The notes beneath the pieces are model-generated. The model saw only the letters and a list, made by a program, of their open reading frames with translations. It was not told the origin of the DNA and searched no databases. DNA of 61,659 bases from Candidatus Limnocylindrales bacterium (GTDB lineage: Bacteria; Chloroflexota; Limnocylindria; Limnocylindrales; CSP1-4), in contig JBIOII010000003.1 in assembly GCA_044449785.1 (NCBI GenBank), positions 1 through 61,659 of the forward strand. The letters run 5' to 3'. Of this stretch, positions 46,235 through 56,678 are shown piece by piece. The translations under genes and the position numbers were made by a program. Within the stretch, counting starts at the first letter, position 1, and every line of letters begins with the position of its first letter.

Positions 46235-46344
46235 GGCGGCTCGCAAGATAGCATAGGTACGTGGGCGGACGATCCACCCCCTCCCGCCGGGGCTTCGGAC
46301 GGGCAGCCGCCGCGCGGCGTGACGACAAGGAGCGGATTACGCCG

Positions 46345-47670
46345 ATGACGCTGCCTGGCGAGACCCACCGTGCAGACAGGCCAAACCTTGCCGCAGGGCT
46401 CCCGGGGCTGCTCGATGAGCTGCGCTGGCGGGGCATGCTCCACCAGACCAGCCACGGCCTCGCGGAACGCTTCGACACGGGCGAACCCATCAAGGGCTAC
46501 AACGGTTTCGATCCGACGGGCCCATCGCTCCATATCGGGCACCTCGTCCCGATCTTCGGGCTGATCCATCTCCAGCGTGCGGGCGGCACGCCGATCGTGG
46601 TGGTGGGCGGCGGTACGGCGATGATCGGCGATCCGTCGGGGCGGTCGGCCGAGCGGTTGCTCCTCAGCAGGCCAACGGTGGAGGAGAACGTCGTAGGGAT
46701 CCAGGGCCAGCTGACGAAGTTCCTCGACTTCGACGGGCCGAACGGCGCCGAGGTCGTGGACAACTACGAGTGGCTCAGCTCGTACTCGCTGCTGCGCTTC
46801 CTGCGCGACGTCGGCAAGCACCTGACGGTGCCGTACATGCTCTCCAAGGATTCGGTCCAGATCCGGCTCGGCGCGGGCCTCAGCTTCACCGAGTTCAGCT
46901 ACATGCTTCTCCAGGCGGCGGACTTCCTGCACTTGTACCGCGCCGGCGGCGTGGAGCTCCAGATGGGCGGCGCCGATCAATGGGGCAACATCACCGCCGG
47001 ACTCGAGTTGATCCGCAAGGAGTTCGGGGCTGGAGACGGGCAGGACCTCGCCTACGGCATGAGCTACCCGCTGCTGACCAACGAGAGCGGCACGAAGTTT
47101 GGCAAGACCGCTGCCGGAACAAGCGTATGGCTCGACCCGGCGAAGACCAGCCCGTTTGCGTTCTACCAGTACTGGCTCGACGCCGACGACCGCGATGTCG
47201 GCAAGTACCTGCGCACCTTCACCCTCTTCGACCGGAGCAAGGTCGAGTCGCTGGAGGCCGAGCAGGCGGCCCACCCCGAGACCCGCGTCGCCCAGAAGGC
47301 GGTCGGGTACGACCTGACCGTTCGGGTCCACGGCGAGGAGGAGGCGCGAAAGGCTGTCCGGGTCAGCGAGGCGGCGTTCTCGAAGGACTCGATCCGCGAT
47401 CCGGAAGTGCTCGCCACTCTCTTCGAGGCGATCGACAGCTTCGAGTTCACGGCCGACGACCTTGCCGGCGGCGCGCTGCGCATCGCCGTCGCCAGCGGCC
47501 AGTACTCGTCGAACGGCGAGGCTCGCCGGGCAATCACGCAGGGCGGTCTCACGATCAACGACGAGCGTGTCGCGGCCCCCGAGGACGCCGTCCCGACCCC
47601 GATCCACGACCGCTACCTTGTTCTGCGGGCCGGCAAGAAGAGCCTCCGCATCGGCCGTTTGAAGACCTGA
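46345..47670 (+). CDS. tyrS: Tyrosyl-tRNA synthetase
   Basis: GFDPTGPSLHIGH, TEFSYMLLQAADF, GGADQWGNI, KFGKT, C-terminal S4 domain; ATG 46345 after AAGGAG. Confidence 0.97.
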   Translation: MTLPGETHRADRPNLAAGLPGLLDELRWRGMLHQTSHGLAERFDTGEPIKGYNGFDPTGPSLHIGHLVPIFGLIHLQRAGGTPIVVVGGGTAMIGDPSGRSAERLLLSRPTVEENVVGIQGQLTKFLDFDGPNGAEVVDNYEWLSSYSLLRFLRDVGKHLTVPYMLSKDSVQIRLGAGLSFTEFSYMLLQAADFLHLYRAGGVELQMGGADQWGNITAGLELIRKEFGAGDGQDLAYGMSYPLLTNESGTKFGKTAAGTSVWLDPAKTSPFAFYQYWLDADDRDVGKYLRTFTLFDRSKVESLEAEQAAHPETRVAQKAVGYDLTVRVHGEEEARKAVRVSEAAFSKDSIRDPEVLATLFEAIDSFEFTADDLAGGALRIAVASGQYSSNGEARRAITQGGLTINDERVAAPEDAVPTPIHDRYLVLRAGKKSLRIGRLKT

Positions 47671-47681
47671 GGCCGGGGGTC

Positions 47682-48047
47682 CTAGAGGTTGGCGGGCGCC
47701 GGAGGAGCCGCTGCGGGTGTCTGCGCCTGCGCTGCCCATTGTTGAAGCGTCCCGACGAGGTGCGCGCAGAACTTGTCCACGTCGTTGCGGCAGGCCCAGC
47801 CCTGGATCGGCCCGATCATGAAACTGTTGCCCACGACCTTCACGATGGCCGCTCCATCCGAGCCCCACAGTTCCAGCCGGATATCGACCGGGTAGCCTAT
47901 CAGTCGAAGCCAGCCTCCCTTGGCTACCAGGACCTGCGGGGTCTGCTGGGCGACCCTCTTGCCGACGGCCACGGCAGCCAGAGCCGCGGCGGGAACGACG
48001 GCCATCAGCGGCGCCGGCAAGGTGAAACTCGTTTCGTACTTGGCCAT
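47682..48047 (-). CDS. Small hypothetical protein
   Basis: GAGGAGG SD directly upstream of ATG 48047; no family recognised. Confidence 0.6.
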   Translation of the reverse strand: MAKYETSFTLPAPLMAVVPAAALAAVAVGKRVAQQTPQVLVAKGGWLRLIGYPVDIRLELWGSDGAAIVKVVGNSFMIGPIQGWACRNDVDKFCAHLVGTLQQWAAQAQTPAAAPPAPANL

Positions 48048-48131: not shown

Positions 48132-48836
48132 CTACCGGCGGTGGCGCTCGCGGAGGCGGGTGATGACGGCCGCCGGAGGGAGGCCGCGCTCGCGGAGCAG
48201 CACCAGGGTGTGATACAGCAGGTCGGCGACCTCGCCGGTGAGTGCTTCGCGAGTGGCGGATCGTGATTCGGTCGTGGCTACGGCGTCGTCCTTCGCCGCC
48301 ATCAGCACCTCCGTGGCCTCTTCGGCGACCTTACGCGACGCGCCGTCAACCCCCGTCGCGAGTAGCCGGGCGGTATATGAGCTGGCCGGATCGGCGGCTG
48401 CGCGAGCATCGATGGTCGCCCACAAAGTCTCGAGCCACTCGAAGCCCTGCTCGTCCGATAGTGCGGCGGCCGCCGTTGTGCGCCCGCCGACGGCCGGCGT
48501 GACTACGGCTCCCGCAGGATCGAAGCAGCTCCGGGTGTTGCGATGGCATGTGGGGCCGCTCGGATCGACCTGGAACAGCAGCGCATCGCCGTCGCAGTCG
48601 AGCGACACGTCGACGAGCCGCAGGGTGTTGCCGCTCATCTCGCCCTTGCGCCACAGGCGGTCGCGCGACCTGGAGTGGAAATGGACCTCGCCGGTGGTCA
48701 GCGTAGATGCGAGCGCCTCGGCATCGACGTACGCAACCATCAGGACGCGCCCGTCAGAAGGATCCTGGACCACCGCCGGGACCAGCCCGCTCGGCCCCCA
48801 GGCCACTTCGCCTTCCGAAACCCGTCTGCCGATCAC
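48132..48836 (-). CDS. hisIE: Bifunctional phosphoribosyl-AMP cyclohydrolase/phosphoribosyl-ATP pyrophosphatase
   Basis: FHSRSR..LWRKGEMSGN, DCDGDAL, TCH..SCF, SSYT, KVAEEATE, EVADLLYH; GTG 48836 overlaps hisF stop. Confidence 0.95.
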   Translation of the reverse strand: MIGRRVSEGEVAWGPSGLVPAVVQDPSDGRVLMVAYVDAEALASTLTTGEVHFHSRSRDRLWRKGEMSGNTLRLVDVSLDCDGDALLFQVDPSGPTCHRNTRSCFDPAGAVVTPAVGGRTTAAAALSDEQGFEWLETLWATIDARAAADPASSYTARLLATGVDGASRKVAEEATEVLMAAKDDAVATTESRSATREALTGEVADLLYHTLVLLRERGLPPAAVITRLRERHRR

Positions 48837-49624
48837 GAGACCGACTCCTCTATCCGGCGGACCGGCAATCCGGCCGCCTCCATGGCTGTCTTTACGTCCG
48901 CAATCGAGTACGTCCGATGATGGAAGATCGATGCGGCAAGCACGGCGTCGGCCTTCCCGTCGCGAACCGCAGCAACGAAGTCGTCCGGGCCCGCGGCGCC
49001 GCCGGAGGCGATCACCGGCACCCGCACCCGTGTCGCTATCGCGGCGAGGAGCTCCGTGTCGAAACCGCTGAGGGTTCCGTCGCGGTCCATCGATGTCACG
49101 AGCAGCTCGCCGGCGCCCAGCTCGACGACTTGCTGGGCCCATACCACTGCCTCGAGGTCGGTCGGCCGTCGCCCGCCGTGCGTGACCACCTCCCACCGGG
49201 TGCGGGCGCCGTCAGCCGCCGGCAGCCGCCGGGCGTCGATCGCGCAAACGACCGCCTGGCTGCCGAATCTCGCGGCACACGCGGTCAACAGCGCCGGCTC
49301 GGCGACGGCCGCGGTATTGAAGGAGACCTTGTCGGCGCCGGCCCTCAGCACGTCGCGCATCTCATCCACGGTGCGCACTCCGCCGCCGACAGTAAGTGGA
49401 ACGAAAGCCCGCGACGCCGTCCGGCGCACGACCTCGAGCATCGTGCCGCGCCGCTCGTGGGCCGCGGTGATATCCAGAAACACGATCTCGTCGGCGCCTT
49501 CTCGCGCATAGCGCTCCGCCAGTTCCGCCGGATCACCTTCGTCGGTCAGGTTGACGAACTTCGTGCCCTTGACGACGCGGCCCTTGGCGACGTCGAGGCA
49601 CGGGATCACTCGCCGCGCCAGCAT
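48833..49624 (-). CDS. hisF: Imidazole glycerol phosphate synthase cyclase subunit
   Basis: RVIPCLDV, GADEIVFLDITA, GADKVSFNTAA, TSMDRDGT, ASGGAA, ASIFH. Confidence 0.97.
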   Translation of the reverse strand: MLARRVIPCLDVAKGRVVKGTKFVNLTDEGDPAELAERYAREGADEIVFLDITAAHERRGTMLEVVRRTASRAFVPLTVGGGVRTVDEMRDVLRAGADKVSFNTAAVAEPALLTACAARFGSQAVVCAIDARRLPAADGARTRWEVVTHGGRRPTDLEAVVWAQQVVELGAGELLVTSMDRDGTLSGFDTELLAAIATRVRVPVIASGGAAGPDDFVAAVRDGKADAVLAASIFHHRTYSIADVKTAMEAAGLPVRRIEESVS

Positions 49625-50289
49625 CAGGCCGCCCCGCTCGCCGCTTGAGTGGCCGGAGATTGACCGGCAGTCGCAGAAACGAGACTCGCGAAATTGCCGA
49701 GCAGCCGCAGACCGGCATCAGACGACTTCTCCGGGTGAAACTGAAGCCCGTAGAGAGAACCGCGCGCGACGGCGCTGGCGAATGGCCGGCCGTGCGTGGT
49801 GGTGGCCAGAACGATGCTCCGGTCGACCGGCTGCGGGGCGTAGGAATGGACGAAGTAGAAGAACGAGCCATCCGGAATGCCGTCGAACAGCGGGTGGTTG
49901 CGCGCGAATTCGACCGAGTTCCAGCCGATGTGAGGCAGCGTCGGCGCGTCGACCAGACCGACCGTCCGGCCCGGCAGGAGGCCGAGCGTCAGAGCTCCGC
50001 CCTCTTCGCTGACGTCGAACAGGAGCTGGTAGCCGAGGCAGATCCCCAGGCATGGCTTCCCGGCCAGGATCCAGGCACGGAGCGGCTCGAGCAGCCCTCG
50101 ATCGCGCAGGTGGTCCGTGGCCGGGCCCGCCGCGCCGACGCCCGGCACGACCAGAGCGTCGACGCCGGCGAAGGCTGAGGACTCGGCGGCCACCCCGACC
50201 TCGGCCCCGACTGCGGCCAGTGCTCTGGTGATGCTGACCATGTTCGCGGCCCCGTAATCGAGGACCGCGACCTTGACGGCGCCGCTCAT
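49624..50289 (-). CDS. hisH: Imidazole glycerol phosphate synthase glutaminase subunit
   Basis: DYGAAN, PGVGA, GICLG, PHIGWN, YFVHSY, QFHPEKS. Confidence 0.96.
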   Translation of the reverse strand: MSGAVKVAVLDYGAANMVSITRALAAVGAEVGVAAESSAFAGVDALVVPGVGAAGPATDHLRDRGLLEPLRAWILAGKPCLGICLGYQLLFDVSEEGGALTLGLLPGRTVGLVDAPTLPHIGWNSVEFARNHPLFDGIPDGSFFYFVHSYAPQPVDRSIVLATTTHGRPFASAVARGSLYGLQFHPEKSSDAGLRLLGNFASLVSATAGQSPATQAASGAA

Positions 50290-50906
50290 CCGAGCGAGCC
50301 CTTCGTGGACCCCGGCCCGAGGCGCCGCGGATCGACTGCCACCGCCGCGCTGAGCGCCCTGCCCAGCGCCTTGAAGGCGGCCTCGGCGAGGTGGTGGTCG
50401 TTGCGGCCCCTGCCCTTGACGTTGAGCGTTACGCCCCCGGCGCGTGCGAGCGATTCGAGCGAGTGTTCGATCAGCTCGAGCGGGAGCCTGCCCGCTCGCT
50501 TGCCCCGAAACGGCAGGTCCACGACGGCATACGGCCGGCCGCCGACGTCGACGACCGCGGTGGCGACGGATTCGTCCATCGGAACGGCAGCGTCGCCGAA
50601 GCGAACGATTCCGGAACGATCGCCGAGAGCCTGCGCGAGGGCCGCGCCGAGGGTCAGCGCCACGTCCTCGACCGTGTGGTGCTCGTCGATCACGAGATCG
50701 CCGCTGGCCTTGATATCCAGGTCGAACAGGGCGTGGTGGGCCAGTGAATTGAGCAAGTGGTCGTAGAACCCAACCCCAGTGTCGATTTCGGTCTCGCCGG
50801 CGCCATCAAGCTTGAGCGTGACCGTGATCTGGGTCTCCCGGGTCGAACGCGACACCGTTGCCCAGCGAGGACCTGAGGCTACTACCGATCCGATCTGGTT
50901 GCTCAT
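50286..50906 (-). CDS. hisB: Imidazoleglycerol-phosphate dehydratase
   Basis: RSTRETQI, FYDHLL, DEHHTVED, PMDES, NDHHLAEAAFKA. Confidence 0.96.
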   Translation of the reverse strand: MSNQIGSVVASGPRWATVSRSTRETQITVTLKLDGAGETEIDTGVGFYDHLLNSLAHHALFDLDIKASGDLVIDEHHTVEDVALTLGAALAQALGDRSGIVRFGDAAVPMDESVATAVVDVGGRPYAVVDLPFRGKRAGRLPLELIEHSLESLARAGGVTLNVKGRGRNDHHLAEAAFKALGRALSAAVAVDPRRLGPGSTKGSLG

Positions 50907-52006
50907 GCCGGAACTCCCGTGGCTGCTTCGATCAGGCGATCGTTCTCCGGCGCCGACCGAACCGTCAGCCGCAGACAGTCTGCGAGCGGGTGATCCGGAC
51001 CGAACGTGCGCGGCACGAGACCGCTCCGGAGCAGGGTCTCGGCGGCGCCTGCTGCGGACGCGATCGAGCCGAAGCGGATGAGAATGAAGTTCGCCTGCGA
51101 CGGGTACGGCCGCCAGCCGAGCGCGCCCAGATCCCTGGTCAGCCGGTCGCGTTGCTCGGAGATCCGGGCGACGTTCGCGGCGGCCAGCTCGGGCCGCCGT
51201 AGCGAGGCCGTGGCAAGGGCTGCCGAAACGGTGCCGACCGAGGCAGGGGCGCGGTAGGAGACGATCGGCGCAAGTGTCTCCGGCCTGGCGATCGCGAACC
51301 CGACCCGAGCGCCGGCCAGGGCGTGGGCCTTGCTCAAGGTCCGCACCACGACCAGCTTCGGGTAGTCGCGCCGGAGCTGGAGGACCGTGCGGCCCACGAA
51401 CTCGGAGTAGGCCTCGTCGACGGCGACGACCGGCGGGAAACGGCCGTCGCGTGCTGCGTCGGATTCGAGGACGGCCAAGAGCCTGGCGATACCCTCGGGC
51501 GGCTCGAAGGTCCCGGTCGGGTTGTTGGGCTCGCACAGCCACACTAGGTGGGCCGTTCTGGCGGCAGCGGCGAGGGCCGGGATGTCCAGCCCGAAGGCCG
51601 CGTCCGGGCCGAGACGCGGCACCGCCACCACGCTCGCCCCGCGCTGTTCGGAGACGATCCGGTACATCGCGTATGTCGGCGTGGCCACGACGGCGACCGA
51701 GCGCTCACGCAGAGTGGCTCGCGCGACCAGGTCCAGGGCTTCGTCGGCACCGGCCGTGGGCAGTACCTCGGCCGAGGCCACTCCATATGCCTCGGCCGCA
51801 GCTGCGACCAGCGGCGCATAGTCACTGGGCGGGTATTCGCACAGCGGCGGATCGAACGGCCCACCGAGCACGTCGCCCAGGTCCGGCGGGAGCGGCGAGG
51901 TGTTGACGTCGAATCGGACGATGGACTCGCGGGGCAGGCCGTATTTCGTCGCGAGGAAGTCGGTCGTCGGCTCCCAGGCGTAAGTGGGCGTGACAGTCGC
52001 GTTCAT
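50903..52006 (-). CDS. hisC: Histidinol-phosphate aminotransferase
   Basis: YP, GADEAL, PNNPTG, DEAY, RTLSKAHALAGARVG. Confidence 0.93.
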   Translation of the reverse strand: MNATVTPTYAWEPTTDFLATKYGLPRESIVRFDVNTSPLPPDLGDVLGGPFDPPLCEYPPSDYAPLVAAAAEAYGVASAEVLPTAGADEALDLVARATLRERSVAVVATPTYAMYRIVSEQRGASVVAVPRLGPDAAFGLDIPALAAAARTAHLVWLCEPNNPTGTFEPPEGIARLLAVLESDAARDGRFPPVVAVDEAYSEFVGRTVLQLRRDYPKLVVVRTLSKAHALAGARVGFAIARPETLAPIVSYRAPASVGTVSAALATASLRRPELAAANVARISEQRDRLTRDLGALGWRPYPSQANFILIRFGSIASAAGAAETLLRSGLVPRTFGPDHPLADCLRLTVRSAPENDRLIEAATGVPA

Positions 52007-53337
52007 TTGGCCCCCCCGAACCTGACCTCGACGGCCCGTTTGTGGGCGAACAAACCCTCGGCTTCGGCGATGGCCTCCACCGAGTCCCGGATAGCCGCGA
52101 GGCCCGAGCGCGTGATCCGCTGAATCTGGATGAACTTGCCGTAGCTCTCGGTGGAGAGCGCGCCGGAGCTACGGGCCAGACCGCCCGTCGGCAGGATGTG
52201 GTTCGCGCCCGACGCATAGTCGCCGGCCGACTCGGGCGCGTACGGGCCGACGAAGAGAGAGCCGGCATTTCGGAGCTGCGCCACGGCTTCTTCGACGTCC
52301 TCCACGACCACGGAGAGGTGCTCGGGGGCGTAGGCGTTCACGAAGCCGAGCGCGGCATCCCGATCGGGCGCGAGGATGATCAGCGCGCAACTCGCCAGGG
52401 AGCGCTCCAGGATGGGGCGTCGCGCAGCCGTAGCAAGCTGGACCTCGAGCTCCGCCTCGACGGCGGCGGCAAGGCCCGCGTCCCAGGTCACGAGCAGGGC
52501 AGGTGAGTCCGGACCGTGCTCTGCCTGTGAGAGCAGGTCCGCAGCAACGTGGCCCGGTTCCGCCGTGCCATCAGCGACGACCATCACCTCCGATGGGCCG
52601 GCCGGGAGGTCTATGCCGCAATCGCCGAATACCTCGAGCTTGGCAGCGGTTACCCACGCGTTGCCCGGGCCGACGATCCGGTCGACGGGCGCAACACCCG
52701 CATCCGGCAGACCGTACGCGAGCGCCCCTACGGCTTGCGCGCCGCCGGCGACGATGAACACGTCGACGCCCGCGAGGCCGGCCGCTCCAACGAGAGTGGC
52801 GTTGAGCCGGCCATCGGCGTCGGCCGGCGAGGCGACGACGATCGTGCCCACGCCGGCGACCCTGGCCGGAACCGCGCCCATCAACAGGGAGCTGGGGTAT
52901 GCGGCGGAACCACCCGGGGCGTAAACCCCGACGCGCGCCAGCGGAACCCAGCGCCGCTCGATCTCGACTCCCGGGACGATGGTTGTCGTTCGAGTTTCCG
53001 GCAGCTCCGTCTCCGCGAAGCGACGGATGTTCTCGATTATCTGCTCGAAGCCGGACCGAATGCGAGGCGGAAGCGCGTCTCGCGCCGCCTCCATCTCTGC
53101 GCGCGTGACGAGGAGGTCGCCGGCGGCGCGCCCACCGCCAAACCTGGCGTTGGCTTCCCGAACGGCGGCATCGCCGCCGAACTTGACCCGAGCCACGATG
53201 GCACGGGCGCCCTCCCGTACTCGTCCATCCGGCACGGCGCCGCGGCGTATCAGAGACCGGACCTCGGCCGCTACGGCCGGGTCGGAATCCGCACGCGCCA
53301 GATCGAGCCGACGCAGCCTCGCCGATGGGCTGTTCAT
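52003..53337 (-). CDS. hisD: Histidinol dehydrogenase
   Basis: YAPGG.AAYPSS, GGAQAVGALAYG, GPGNAWV, PAGPSE, LSQAEH, APEHL, YASGANHILPT. Confidence 0.96.
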   Translation of the reverse strand: MNSPSARLRRLDLARADSDPAVAAEVRSLIRRGAVPDGRVREGARAIVARVKFGGDAAVREANARFGGGRAAGDLLVTRAEMEAARDALPPRIRSGFEQIIENIRRFAETELPETRTTTIVPGVEIERRWVPLARVGVYAPGGSAAYPSSLLMGAVPARVAGVGTIVVASPADADGRLNATLVGAAGLAGVDVFIVAGGAQAVGALAYGLPDAGVAPVDRIVGPGNAWVTAAKLEVFGDCGIDLPAGPSEVMVVADGTAEPGHVAADLLSQAEHGPDSPALLVTWDAGLAAAVEAELEVQLATAARRPILERSLASCALIILAPDRDAALGFVNAYAPEHLSVVVEDVEEAVAQLRNAGSLFVGPYAPESAGDYASGANHILPTGGLARSSGALSTESYGKFIQIQRITRSGLAAIRDSVEAIAEAEGLFAHKRAVEVRFGGAK

Positions 53338-54194
53338 GAAACGAGCTTCTCGATGGGCAGGATCAGGATCCCGGAGGCGCCGGCGGCCTTGAGGCGCGGC
53401 AGCAGCGACCACACCTGATCGGCCTCAACGACCGAGTGGATGGCGCACATGCCTTCGTGCGCCAGCGGAATGATCGAGGGCGACTCAAGCCCCGGCAGCA
53501 GGTCCTCGAGCTCGGCGAGCTTCGCCTTGGGCGCGTTCATCATCAGGTATTTGCGGTCGCGAGCGGCTAGCGTCGCGCCGAGCATCGTCCGGATCGTGTC
53601 CAGTTCATCGGGGCGGTCATCGAGCGCAGTCTGGTTGGCCAGCAGCACCGCCTCCGAGGCGAATACCTCTTCGATAGGCTGGAGGCCATTGACGACAAGA
53701 GTTGACCCGGTGGAGACGAGATCGACGATCGCTTCGGCGAGGCCCAGGCGCGGCGCGACTTCGGCGGCGCCGGAAACCGGGATCACATCGACAGGGATCG
53801 AACGCCCCTCGAAGAACCGTTTCGTAAGTGAGATGTGCGACGTCGCGACGCGAAGTCCTGCCAGGTCCTCGGCGGCTCGAAAGGGCGAGCCGTTGGGAAC
53901 CGCGATCGTCAGGCGGCATTTGCCATAACCGAGAGTCCGGAGCTGGGGCACGTTCGATCCCGACTCCGCCACGAGATCTAGCCCGGTCACACCCAACTCG
54001 GCGACGCCGTCGCTCACGAACTCGACGACGTCGTTGGTGCGAACGAACAGGATGTCGAGGTCGAAGTTCTGGACCCGCGCCACGAGCGCTCGCTCGCCGG
54101 CCTCGAAGACGAGCCCGGCATCGCGGAGGAGAGCAACGGTCGGTTCGACCAGCCGGCCTTTGTTGGGAATTGCCAGCCGCAGGCGTCGGGTCAT
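53334..54194 (-). CDS. hisG: ATP phosphoribosyltransferase, long form
   Basis: AIPNKGRL, VRTND, GVTGLD, GAAEVAP.LG.AEAIVDLVSTGSTL; C-terminal regulatory domain. Confidence 0.96.
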   Translation of the reverse strand: MTRRLRLAIPNKGRLVEPTVALLRDAGLVFEAGERALVARVQNFDLDILFVRTNDVVEFVSDGVAELGVTGLDLVAESGSNVPQLRTLGYGKCRLTIAVPNGSPFRAAEDLAGLRVATSHISLTKRFFEGRSIPVDVIPVSGAAEVAPRLGLAEAIVDLVSTGSTLVVNGLQPIEEVFASEAVLLANQTALDDRPDELDTIRTMLGATLAARDRKYLMMNAPKAKLAELEDLLPGLESPSIIPLAHEGMCAIHSVVEADQVWSLLPRLKAAGASGILILPIEKLVS

Positions 54195-54517
54195 CGAGCC
54201 GCCTCTCCGGTGGTGGGTCCTTTGGCCAGCCGCAACCGTTCGAGCGCGGCCGTGTAGCCGCCTTCACCGTGGTGAAGCCATTGGGCGATGCGAGTTATCG
54301 TCGCCGTGCTCGCGCCGGTCCGGCTCGAAATCTCCGCGTAGTGCATGCCGGCGTCGAGCTGCCGGACGACGGCCCAGCGCTGGGCCATGTCGTGAAGCTC
54401 ACCCAACGTGCAGAGGTCGCGGAAGAAGGCGGAGGCCTCGTCGGGCGTTTCGAGACGCAAGATCGCCTCGAACAGCTCGCCCACGGCCTCGTTGCGCCAG
54501 GCTTCCATTGCGCTCAT
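54191..54517 (-). CDS. YerC/YecD TrpR-like transcriptional regulator (HisR-like)
   Basis: FFRDLCT..EL..MAQRW.V, YAEIS..TGASTATITRIA..L..G.GGY; first gene of the his operon. Confidence 0.9.
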   Translation of the reverse strand: MSAMEAWRNEAVGELFEAILRLETPDEASAFFRDLCTLGELHDMAQRWAVVRQLDAGMHYAEISSRTGASTATITRIAQWLHHGEGGYTAALERLRLAKGPTTGEAAR

Positions 54518-54580
54518 CGTCGTTCCTCATGATCGGTCCGGCCGGGCTGGCAGTCTGTGCGACCCTCAGGTCCGTGCTGG

Positions 54581-54605
54581 TGTAGTAGCATAGTAGCATG
54601 CTACA
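54581..54605. promoter_or_regulatory. Candidate HisR operator overlapping divergent -10 elements
   Basis: Tandem TAGTAGCA x2 (54583-54598) and palindrome GTAGCATGCTAC (54593-54604); TAGCAT -10 on + (54586-54591); TGcTACTAT on - (54598-54590). Confidence 0.65.
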
Positions 54606-55368
54606 ACAAAGGCAATCGGGAAGAGCGGCACGGTTCGAGCTTCTGCCGGCGATCGACCTGCGCGGAGGTCAGGTCGTTCGGCTGGCCGAAGGGGATTTCG
54701 CCCGCCAGACCGTGTACGGCAACGATCCGGCCGAAACTGCGCGCGGGTTCGCCGAGGCCGGCGCCCGCTGGATCCACGTCGTGGACCTCGACGGGGCCAG
54801 TTATGGGGTGCGACGCGAGGAAGAAGAGGTTGCACGCATCGTCGCCGCGGCCGGGCGGGGAGTTCGGTGCGAAGTCGCCGGCGGTCTGCGGGACGAGCAG
54901 GCCGTCGCGGCCGTGCTGGACATCGGGGCCGCGCGTGCCGTCGTCGGAACTGCGGCTCTCCGTGACCCCGACTTCGTCGAGCGGCTAGTAGCGCGCTTCG
55001 GCGCGGACCGCGTTGCCGTCGCCCTGGACGTCCGCGACGGCCGGGCGGTCGGCGACGGCTGGGTCCGCGGCGTGCCGGGCGTGCCGGTCGAGGCGGCGCT
55101 GGCCGCGTTGTCGGATTGCGGCGTCCGCACCTTCGTCGTCACTGCGATCGAGCGCGACGGTTTGCTGACGGGACCGAACCTGGATCTGCTCGGCCGAATG
55201 GTGGAACAGAACCGCGGCGACATCGTCGCTTCGGCCGGCGTTTCGTCGATGGCAGACCTCGAGGCTGTGCGGTCCATCGGGTGCGTCGGCGCCGTGGTTG
55301 GCCGAGCGATCTACGACGGGCGGCTCGACCTGGCGGATGCCGTGCGACGCTTCGATGGCGGCCGCTAG
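54598..55368 (+). CDS. hisA: ProFAR isomerase
   Basis: PAIDLRGGQVVRL, HVVDLDGA, GGLR, VVGTAA, RDG, VVGRAIY; divergent from the his operon. Confidence 0.95.
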   Translation: MLQQRQSGRAARFELLPAIDLRGGQVVRLAEGDFARQTVYGNDPAETARGFAEAGARWIHVVDLDGASYGVRREEEEVARIVAAAGRGVRCEVAGGLRDEQAVAAVLDIGAARAVVGTAALRDPDFVERLVARFGADRVAVALDVRDGRAVGDGWVRGVPGVPVEAALAALSDCGVRTFVVTAIERDGLLTGPNLDLLGRMVEQNRGDIVASAGVSSMADLEAVRSIGCVGAVVGRAIYDGRLDLADAVRRFDGGR

Positions 55369-56678
55369 CAGGTGGGCGGCTGGGTTTTGCCGTAGTAGCG
55401 GCTGTCCGTGCCGAAGAGCTTGACGGAGAGTGGTGCGACCTTGTCCAGTTGGAGACACGTAGTAGATGCGCTTGCCGTTGACGTGGAGATGCTGTACGGC
55501 GGGCCGAGGACGTACTCGTCGTAATTCGCCGACGGCACCGATTGGGCGAAGTCGACCACGTCGGCCACCCGAGACGCCGGGAAGTTGGTGCTGACCAGAG
55601 AAGCTGCCTGGCTCATCAGATCCGGCAGCCGAACGAACATCGACGGGGAGGCCATCTTGTGCGCGACGGCGACCAGGAGTTGTTGCTGGCGGCCGGCGCG
55701 GGCCCAATCGCTGTTGCCTGACCCGTGACGAGACCGAGCGTAGGCGAGGGCATTTCGCCCATCCATGTGGTGTGGGCCGGCCGAGAGCTGGAACCCGAGC
55801 GGACCGCCGTTGAGCCAGTCGTACGTCGGATCGACGATGGTCGAGGGATTGACGATGTCGACCCCGCCGACCATGTCGATGATCTTCATGAAGCTGGCCA
55901 GGTCGAGTACACCGTAGTAGTCGATCGGGACGCCGACGAGGTAGCTCACCTCCTTGATGAGCGTCGTGACCGGTTGGTCGGGCGACTTGAGCCAGCCGTT
56001 CTTTACGTACGTCGGGATCGCGTTGATCTTGATCGTACCCTTGCCGCCCCAATACAAGGGATAGCCGGTGGTGTCTCGGGGGACGCTCACCAGCGAGATG
56101 CGCTTCGTATCCGTGTCCACGCTGACGACCATCAGCGAGTCATAGAGTGTCTCGCTTCGGGTCGGGTACGCGTCCACGCCCGCGAGCAATACCGTCAGGC
56201 GGGCGCTGGAAGGCGTGCCCTGGGGCGCCTCTGCCCCGCCACCACCGATCCTGAAGATGCCCAGATCCATCTGATAGGCGGACGCCACGAGCCAGGCTCC
56301 GGCGGCGTGGCTGGCCACGATCGCGGCCAGCAGCACCGACAGAGCAAGACGCTCGACGAACCGCGCTCGGAGGCGCCGCTCACCCGAGCCAAAGGCATGG
56401 AGCACGGCGAAGAGCCGCCACACGCCGAGGATCACGACCGCCACGAATACCGCCGCCGCCGCAGAGGGGTCGAGTAATCGCGCGAACAGGACCGTCAGGC
56501 CAGACCGCGCCGCGTAGAGGCCGATTGCGGCCAGCGCGAGGGCCGGGGTTGCGAATAGAAGCGCACTCAACCGTCGCCGGGCGTACATCTGCCCGAGCCC
56601 CGGCCAGAGGAAAGAGAGCAGGGCGGCAAGCGCCGGTGAGACCGGTCTCTTCGAATGCGCCGTTGCGGTGGAGTTCAT
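55365..56678 (-). CDS. LCP (LytR-CpsA-Psr) family protein
   Basis: LLAGVD, DSLMVV, SVPRDT, KINA, ALAYARSRH, DWARAGRQQ; N-terminal TMs (LSFLWPGLGQMY). Confidence 0.92.
   Translation of the reverse strand: MNSTATAHSKRPVSPALAALLSFLWPGLGQMYARRRLSALLFATPALALAAIGLYAARSGLTVLFARLLDPSAAAAVFVAVVILGVWRLFAVLHAFGSGERRLRARFVERLALSVLLAAIVASHAAGAWLVASAYQMDLGIFRIGGGGAEAPQGTPSSARLTVLLAGVDAYPTRSETLYDSLMVVSVDTDTKRISLVSVPRDTTGYPLYWGGKGTIKINAIPTYVKNGWLKSPDQPVTTLIKEVSYLVGVPIDYYGVLDLASFMKIIDMVGGVDIVNPSTIVDPTYDWLNGGPLGFQLSAGPHHMDGRNALAYARSRHGSGNSDWARAGRQQQLLVAVAHKMASPSMFVRLPDLMSQAASLVSTNFPASRVADVVDFAQSVPSANYDEYVLGPPYSISTSTASASTTCLQLDKVAPLSVKLFGTDSRYYGKTQPPTC

Follow-up and report, generated by a model that had tools for sequence, protein, structure and literature searches.

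Histidine biosynthesis in a Candidatus Limnocylindrales bacterium is likely to be controlled by a local regulon that is autoregulated by HisR, a repressor of the TrpR family, and that covers both the hisR-hisGDCBHF-IE operon and the divergent hisA gene. The genes lie in a stretch of 61.7 kb (the window) of contig JBIOII010000003.1 of assembly GCA_044449785.1 (2.3 Mb, 64.5% complete). According to the open reading frame (ORF) listing and profile searches, the order on the minus strand is hisR(yerC)-hisG-hisD-hisC-hisB-hisH-hisF-hisIE, and hisA is oriented divergently from hisR across a spacer of 80 bp (54518-54597). The predicted HisR operator at 54581-54608 lies in the control region common to hisA and the hisR-led operon, and because it is placed to control both, autoregulation would be implied. 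The features on which this interpretation is built are the following.

54589-54608, no strand: main predicted HisR operator, a 20-bp palindrome, CATAGTAGCATGCTACAACA, with the 12-bp perfect core GTAGCATGCTAC; dyad at 54598/54599; overlaps the hisA start codon
54581-54600, no strand: second predicted site, shifted by 8 bp, TGTAGTAGCATAGTAGCATG; holds both TAGTAGCA repeats
54586-54591, plus strand: predicted hisA -10 hexamer, TAGCAT, at -12 to -7 counted from the A of its ATG (54598)
54587-54615, minus strand: predicted hisR-operon promoter, with -35 TTGCCT (54615-54610), a 17-bp spacer and -10 TATGCT (54592-54587)
54191-54517, minus strand: hisR (yerC/yecD family, TrpR fold), 108 amino acids; upstream GAGGAA Shine-Dalgarno sequence; stop overlaps the hisG start (ATGA)
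54598-55368, plus strand: hisA (ProFAR isomerase); PF00977 204 bits; TIGR00007 218 bits, just below the cut-off of 229

The regulator

By its profile and structure matches, the lead gene of the operon clearly encodes a HisR (YerC-family) repressor. It scores 88.5 bits with TIGR02531 (cut-off 42.2) and 85.2 bits with PF01371 (cut-off 27), whereas the model for true TrpR, TIGR01321, gives only 26 against a cut-off of 67. Residues 8-98 match the structure 3g1c from E. eligens with E=9.8e-20, with similar values for PDB entries 3kor and 3frw, and 3g1c is treated as HisR by Ashniev et al. 2022 (PMC9413887). The helix-turn-helix signature is present in HYAEISSRTGASTATITRIAQW, where Y60, A72, T73, and R76 are invariant in the Chloroflexota HisR alignment; the residue mapping, with Tyr for TrpR Arg69 and the equivalents of Ala80, Thr81, and Arg84, follows the description in PMC9413887. 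The residue equivalent to TrpR Thr83 is Thr in the window HisR and Ser in most HisR, and the recognition helix reads GASTATITRIAQW. Close homologues carry the name 'Candidatus Limnocylindrales bacterium', and the best 80 genome loci all belong to Chloroflexota/Limnocylindrales metagenome-assembled genomes from peat, fen, palsa, and soil. An earlier note on this DNA had already named the lead gene as a YerC (HisR)-type, TrpR-like repressor and had described the gene order, the TGATG overlap of hisH and hisF, and a divergent hisA at 80 bp from yerC; on all these points the ORF listing, the profile searches, and the matches to TIGR02531 and to solved structures agree with it.

Short contigs matching hisR were found in two peat metatranscriptome runs, with 1 differing letter in 197 and 3 in 243. 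The gene, or the copy of a near-identical strain, is therefore present in peat RNA libraries. The contigs cover 54193-54519, inside hisR only, leave hisA uncovered, and are uninformative on start sites.

HisR (YerC of B. subtilis) is a described TrpR-family repressor that was found in 395 genomes of Firmicutes and another 97 from Actinobacteria, Proteobacteria, Synergistetes, Dictyoglomi, Elusimicrobia, and Acholeplasma (PMC9413887). Its motifs are lineage-specific 20-bp palindromes, histidine-dependent DNA binding has been demonstrated in vitro for R. gnavus HisR, and hisR heads an autoregulated his operon in Proteobacteria, Peptococcaceae, Negativicutes, and Elusimicrobia (PMC9413887). The statement of the earlier note that HisR was merely predicted, and in Firmicutes, is thus outdated, as in vitro binding and hisR-led operons elsewhere had already been described. 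The same paper does not cover Chloroflexi, reports single 20-bp sites only, and is silent on tandem HisR sites and on a divergent hisA (PMC9413887). Within the library of papers searched, no further paper on HisR was found.

The predicted operator

Within the window, TAGTAGCA occurs at 54583-54590 and 54591-54598, at a spacing of 8 bp, and nowhere else (0.11 copies expected; none of 100 shuffles reached two). The adjoining palindrome GTAGCATGCTAC (54593-54604) has no second copy in the 2.3-Mb assembly, also with one mismatch allowed, and a longer imperfect inverted repeat, TGTAGTAGCAT-N6-ATGCTACAACA, spans 54581-54608. These elements contain three TA-centred half-sites, GTAG at 54585, GTAG at 54593, and CTAC at 54601. 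Their TA steps at 54586/87, 54594/95, and 54602/03 give an arrangement as in TrpR-type tandem operators, with at least three half-sites in 8-bp register.

The palindrome was compared with the published HisR sites tgtaccagcatgctaacaca, tgtattagcacgctaataca, tgtaatagcgcgctattaca, and cactttagcgtgctactgta from the site lists of PMC9413887; for proteobacterial HisR the comparison consists of published site lists only. CATAGTAGCATGCTACAACA has the TAGC-NN-GCTA core and the 20-bp palindromic layout in common with sites such as tgtaccagcatgctaacaca and tgtattagcacgctaataca. Judged by this likeness, the window motif is a lineage variant of the known HisR site. Of the shifted site at 54581-54600, the right half is poor, whereas the left half, TGTAGTAG (54581-54588), is perfect and fits the proteobacterial half-site TGTAnTAr. 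The two copies of TAGTAGCA in 8-bp period and the palindrome GTAGCATGCTAC were thus described correctly in the earlier note, but its 'new motif' could not be upheld because CATAGTAGCATGCTACAACA carries the core of published HisR sites.

Conservation in relatives

The regulator is present in 33 of the 36 other genomes of the same genus that were searched, and in all 28 loci from other genomes in which the flank extends beyond hisR on its upstream side, hisA is divergent from hisR-hisG-hisD. Across about 30 loci of the genus, the spacer measures 55-110 bp and cannot be aligned, while TGTAGTAGCATAGTAGCATG, which adjoins the hisA ATG, is 82-100% conserved per column. No other conserved element was found in the spacers of these loci. 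That the repeats and the palindrome behave as a HisR operator is therefore supported by their being near-invariant while the rest of the spacer varies.

Beyond the genus, 73 Limnocylindrales loci carry hisA divergent from hisR. Their spacers contain arrays of the units TAnCrT and AyGnTA in chains of up to six units. Considering all unit pairs up to 40 nt apart, 185 of 197 distances are 8, 16, 24, or 32, compared to about 0.9 pairs in total in shuffles. The 8-bp register, described in the earlier note for the window, is thus real and family-wide. Outside the genus, the consensus consists of the units [g.TAgCGT][agTAGCgT] followed by [GCTAa.Ac][GcTA.ca.], four units that are symmetric about a single dyad, TAGCgTGCTA.

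The motif occurs once per genome, and the regulon is therefore local. A wider regulon was considered and rejected: outside the hisA/hisR spacer, neither the tandem motif (up to 3 mismatches) nor GTAGCRYGCTAC (up to 1 mismatch) is commoner than reversed-pattern controls. The recurring GTAGCGCGCTAC also failed as a second site: two genomes carry it within a permease-like coding region, and in the others its contexts are not homologous. The motif scan, a check proposed in the earlier note, leaves a single occurrence per genome.

Covariation of regulator and site, and the position of hisA

Among the 300 other Chloroflexota genomes searched, 21 encode HisR. The family of the window (f1) and an unrelated family (f17) combine the recognition helix ASTATITRI(A/N) with GTAGCA- or TTAGCA-type sites and a divergent hisA. 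One genus of the same class (f3 g14) combines the helix ASSATISRVN with a site of the Firmicute type, GCTTTA-N6-TAAAGC, and with the canonical order hisR-hisGDCBH-A-F-IE. In the HisR tree, f17 groups with f1, and f3 g14 falls on the Firmicute side (85/89 support). Because the helix and the site type change together, the assignment of the repeats to HisR is supported.

Since a lineage of the same class keeps hisR-hisGDCBH-A-F-IE, it is plausible that hisA left the hisH/hisF junction in the lineage of the window locus. The excision and inversion of hisA put forward in the earlier note is one plausible route, which is indistinguishable from other routes of rearrangement. The genus with the canonical order may have acquired its locus separately.

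In another Chloroflexota family (f26; loci L064-L067), a standalone hisR-like gene of about 40% identity is not located beside his genes. Immediately upstream of the start of this gene there is a conserved element resembling AATTCTAG.

Predicted promoters and the start of hisA

The hisA ATG has no Shine-Dalgarno sequence and is the sole in-frame start before the conserved HisA core, from which it is separated by a variable N-terminal extension of 12-20 residues. In nearly all loci of the genus this ATG is in frame and open to the core. The hisA mRNA is probably leaderless and would start at its ATG, because TAGCAT is found at -12 to -7, a Shine-Dalgarno sequence is absent, and the ATG is in frame across the genus. 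Downstream of the ATG, cTAcaAcgca.GCAAg is moderately conserved in the genus while the encoded peptide varies. Codon 2 is the rare CTA (2.2% of the Leu codons in the window genes), and codons 2-4 use CTA and CAA. Conserved DNA, rare codons, and a varying peptide therefore suggest that hisA codons 2-4 are constrained at the level of DNA.

The predicted promoter of the hisR operon matches at 8 of 12 positions, below the threshold of the promoter scan, and its -35 TTGCCT is located inside hisA codons 5-6. In the genus, positions +15 to +19 of hisA hold a conserved GCAAG, which could be explained by this -35. Other genera have TTGACA- or TTGTCA-like reverse complements at the same position.

Proposed mechanism and alternative explanations

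By homology, HisR would be a dimer of the TrpR fold with L-histidine as co-repressor. We infer that histidine-loaded HisR binds 54581-54608, probably as two overlapping dimers. The last two half-sites would make up a HisR palindrome of the standard 20 bp with its centre at the hisA start codon, and the first half-site would add an overlapping site at a shift of 8 bp, which is the register of tandem TrpR dimers. As the half-sites read TAGCAT and TATGCT on opposite strands and coincide with the likely -10 hexamers of both promoters, the bound repressor would keep RNA polymerase off both. hisA and the hisR-led operon would be switched off together, hisR would be autoregulated, and histidine shortage would release both transcripts. 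The earlier note had proposed an autoregulated bidirectional HisR regulon with a new motif; the shared position of the operator, its conservation, and the identity of the regulator speak for this regulon, while the motif is not new.

Several observations weigh against the model. The palindrome had been placed over both -10 elements in the earlier note, and TAnnnT hexamers are indeed found there on both strands, but a sigma-70 consensus scan with a 9-of-12 threshold called no promoter in either direction. What has been proposed on promoter positions and on a leaderless start of hisA is therefore a reading of weak hexamers. In the site at 54581-54600, GTAG...GTAG is a direct repeat, so that the site is only half palindromic and would poorly fit a symmetric dimer unless binding is cooperative. 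The relatives are phylogenetically linked, the counts of loci are not counts of independent events, and the correlation between protein and site includes just two lineages of each type. In addition, constraints on promoters and the start codon, and not contacts with the repressor, could in part be responsible for the conserved block. If this were true for the entire block of 20-28 bp, it would consist of overlapping core promoters and the hisA start codon only, and HisR would bind elsewhere or not regulate the locus at all. The TAnnnT hexamers on both strands, the embedded hisA ATG, and the strongest conservation on the side that would carry the hisA -10 are in agreement with such a block. However, a -10 hexamer and an ATG need neither at least 20 invariant bases nor up to six units that keep exactly to an 8-bp register, the block is a match to published HisR sites, the site type changes along with the HisR recognition helix, and the spacer holds no other conserved element, so that we regard this explanation as very improbable. 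HisR might also repress one direction only, either the hisR operon or hisA, with the other promoter escaping or being controlled differently. Some room is left for this view by the predicted nature of the promoter positions and by the perfect palindrome, whose centre at the hisA start is about 80 bp away from the hisR ATG. It is improbable nevertheless, because the rest of the spacer lacks any conserved element to serve as a separate hisR promoter, the conserved -35-like TTGC/TTGAC inside hisA at 17 bp from TATGCT puts the operon promoter within the operator, and the divergent layout has been retained in 73 loci.

Control at the RNA level was also considered. A T-box or RNA switch did not appear in Rfam searches at E<=1, which gave only an unrelated weak small RNA match, and the hisR 5' untranslated regions of 35 loci fold no better than shuffles (mean z -0.08). 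An RNA switch, a T-box, and a His leader attenuator were thereby rejected. A second layer of control can be imagined if both transcripts were leaderless, starting from a two-fold symmetric TAGCAT-N6-ATG module, and the minus-strand transcript began with a His-containing leader ORF (MLLHQH...) coupled to hisR:

54514-54591, minus strand: possible upstream ORF (uORF) of 25 codons, MLLHQHGPEGRTDCQPGRTDHEERR; ATG (54591-54589) in the operator; TGA overlaps the hisR ATG; doubtful

TAGCAT-N6-ATG can be read on both strands, the uORF stop overlaps the hisR ATG, and the frame is biased in 35 genus-level loci, with 22 in the coupling frame, 9 in frame with hisR, and 4 in another. The ORF is open to hisR in 22 of the 35 loci, of which 17 end at ATGA and 5 are fused in frame. 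However, the loci are related and the frame bias may be inherited, early stops occur in 13 of the 35, and there are merely 1-3 His codons. The ORF has no coding periodicity of its GC content (0.71/0.72/0.73 compared to 0.74/0.52/0.82 in real genes), no attenuator structure is found, and the better sigma-70 fit (TTGCCT, 17 bp, TATGCT) would start transcription downstream of the uORF ATG, which is itself inside the predicted -10. Such a leader ORF is thus doubtful. The same degree of doubt applies to the combined idea that operator and promoters are one, with the TAGCAT half-sites doubling as -10 elements, both transcripts leaderless, at least two HisR dimers in 8-bp register, and a coupled His-containing ORF. 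If true, the coupling would give the nine-cistron chain an additional entry that is translation-coupled and sensitive to histidine. Concerning the reason for the separate position of hisA, the gene could have left the operon as a bifunctional PriA-type HisA/TrpF isomerase that is also needed for tryptophan synthesis, and it does score 173 bits with the hisA-trpF model TIGR01919. This is far below the cut-off of 306 bits, the plain HisA model TIGR00007 scores higher, and trpF (PF00697) is found above cut-off in 12 of 15 other genomes of the genus searched. A PriA-type hisA is thereby largely refuted, was rejected, and appears scarcely credible. Control of both directions by HisR from the shared operator therefore remains our preferred interpretation.

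Comparison with known HisR and TrpR systems

The HisR-led operons of Proteobacteria (Xanthomonadales, Legionellales, Francisella, Caulobacterales), Peptococcaceae, Negativicutes, and Elusimicrobium have a single local 20-bp palindromic site upstream, from which autoregulation is predicted, and share the TGTAnTA half-site and the TAGC-NN-GCTA core with the window (PMC9413887). Compared to these operons, hisA of the window is absent from the hisH/hisF junction and is divergent from the same control region. In addition, the predicted operator overlaps the hisA start codon and has extra half-sites in 8-bp register, and the helix reads ATITRIA where ATISRVN is common. The Firmicute HisR proteins (B. 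subtilis YerC, R. gnavus; structures 3g1c, 3kor, 3frw) are alike in family (E ~1e-19), in the helix-turn-helix signature, and in histidine as the expected co-repressor. Their consensus, however, is cacTTTAnnnnnnTAAAgtg, whereas the window site has the flanks GTAG and CTAC. The hisR gene of most Firmicutes is not linked to the his genes and also controls transporters, while the regulon of the window has a single site.

E. coli TrpR, with its operators at trpEDCBA, aroH, and trpR, is alike in fold and in the 20-bp palindrome with a TA-N6-TA core. As proposed for the window, its operator overlaps the -10, the repressor is autoregulated, and half-sites 8 bp apart allow tandem overlapping dimers. 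The two proteins differ in the effector pocket and in the amino acid that is bound, and trpR is located outside the trp operon. Tandem occupancy is proven for TrpR, whereas for the window HisR we only infer it. Tandem binding of TrpR was reportedly seen in crystal and in vivo work by Lawson and Carey 1993 and Kumamoto et al. 1987. The TrpR half-site and the 8-bp spacer model are cited in PMC9413887.

The histidine operon and its surroundings

The remaining genes of the operon are listed below.

53334-54194, minus strand: hisG, long-form ATP phosphoribosyltransferase with a C-terminal regulatory domain; PF01634 and PF08029 (HisG_C); TIGR00070 195 bits
52003-53337, minus strand: hisD, histidinol dehydrogenase; PF00815 469 bits; likely start ATG at 53337, overlapping the hisG stop
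50903-52006, minus strand: hisC, histidinol-phosphate aminotransferase, by PF00155 (140 bits) and operon position
50286-50906, minus strand: hisB, imidazoleglycerol-phosphate dehydratase only, without a phosphatase domain; PF00475 192 bits; ATGA overlap at both ends
49624-50289, minus strand: hisH, glutamine amidotransferase subunit; PF00117; stop overlaps the hisF start (TGATG), sequence GGCCTGATGCTGG
48833-49624, minus strand: hisF, imidazole glycerol phosphate synthase cyclase subunit; PF00977 269 bits
48132-48836, minus strand: hisIE, bifunctional phosphoribosyl-AMP cyclohydrolase (PRA-CH)/phosphoribosyl-ATP pyrophosphohydrolase (PRA-PH); PF01502 and PF01503; NF002747 221 bits; GTG start overlaps the hisF stop

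Neighbouring genes overlap at every junction, by ATGA in five cases (R/G, G/D, D/C, C/B, B/H), by TGATG at H/F, and by GTGA at F/IE. The eight genes therefore represent one translationally coupled unit, and the hisH/hisF overlap is exactly where hisA is usually positioned. On the other side of the spacer, the hisA stop overlaps a convergent gene of the LytR-CpsA-Psr family (55365-56678, minus strand) by 4 bp (55365-55368), leaving no room for a terminator. Past the end of the his operon, and before tyrS (46261-47670), there is an ORF of 121 amino acids (47682-48047, minus strand) that is without an NCBIfam match and doubtful as a gene.

In several sister genera (L086, G310:C1; also L078, L079, L080, L083) hisD is missing from the operon and hisG is directly followed by hisC; hisD must therefore lie elsewhere in their genomes. 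HisR was found in none of the 24 genomes of a sister family of the same order with small genomes (G037-G060, about 1.0-1.4 Mb), and nine genomes of this family that were searched gave no PF00697 match for trpF. This suggests streamlined genomes with reduced amino-acid biosynthesis or regulation.

Implications

The novelty of the locus is modest and consists of the Chloroflexota lineage, the control region shared with a probably leaderless hisA, and the TrpR-like tandem array. The control mechanism itself was already known, and was previously unreported in the Limnocylindrales lineage. The general view of histidine control is thus unchanged, and the locus represents a well-supported, incremental annotation. 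It extends the histidine regulon of HisR to the Chloroflexota, where the Limnocylindrales are abundant in metagenomes of peat, fen, and soil, and it provides an assignment of regulator to site that is ready to be used in the annotation of uncultured Limnocylindrales genomes. The common change of the helix (ATITRIA versus ATISRVN) and the site flank (GTAG versus TTTA) represents a small natural experiment on the specificity of TrpR-family repressors. The family-wide arrays in 8-bp phase suggest an ability of HisR to bind in the manner of TrpR, as overlapping dimers in tandem.

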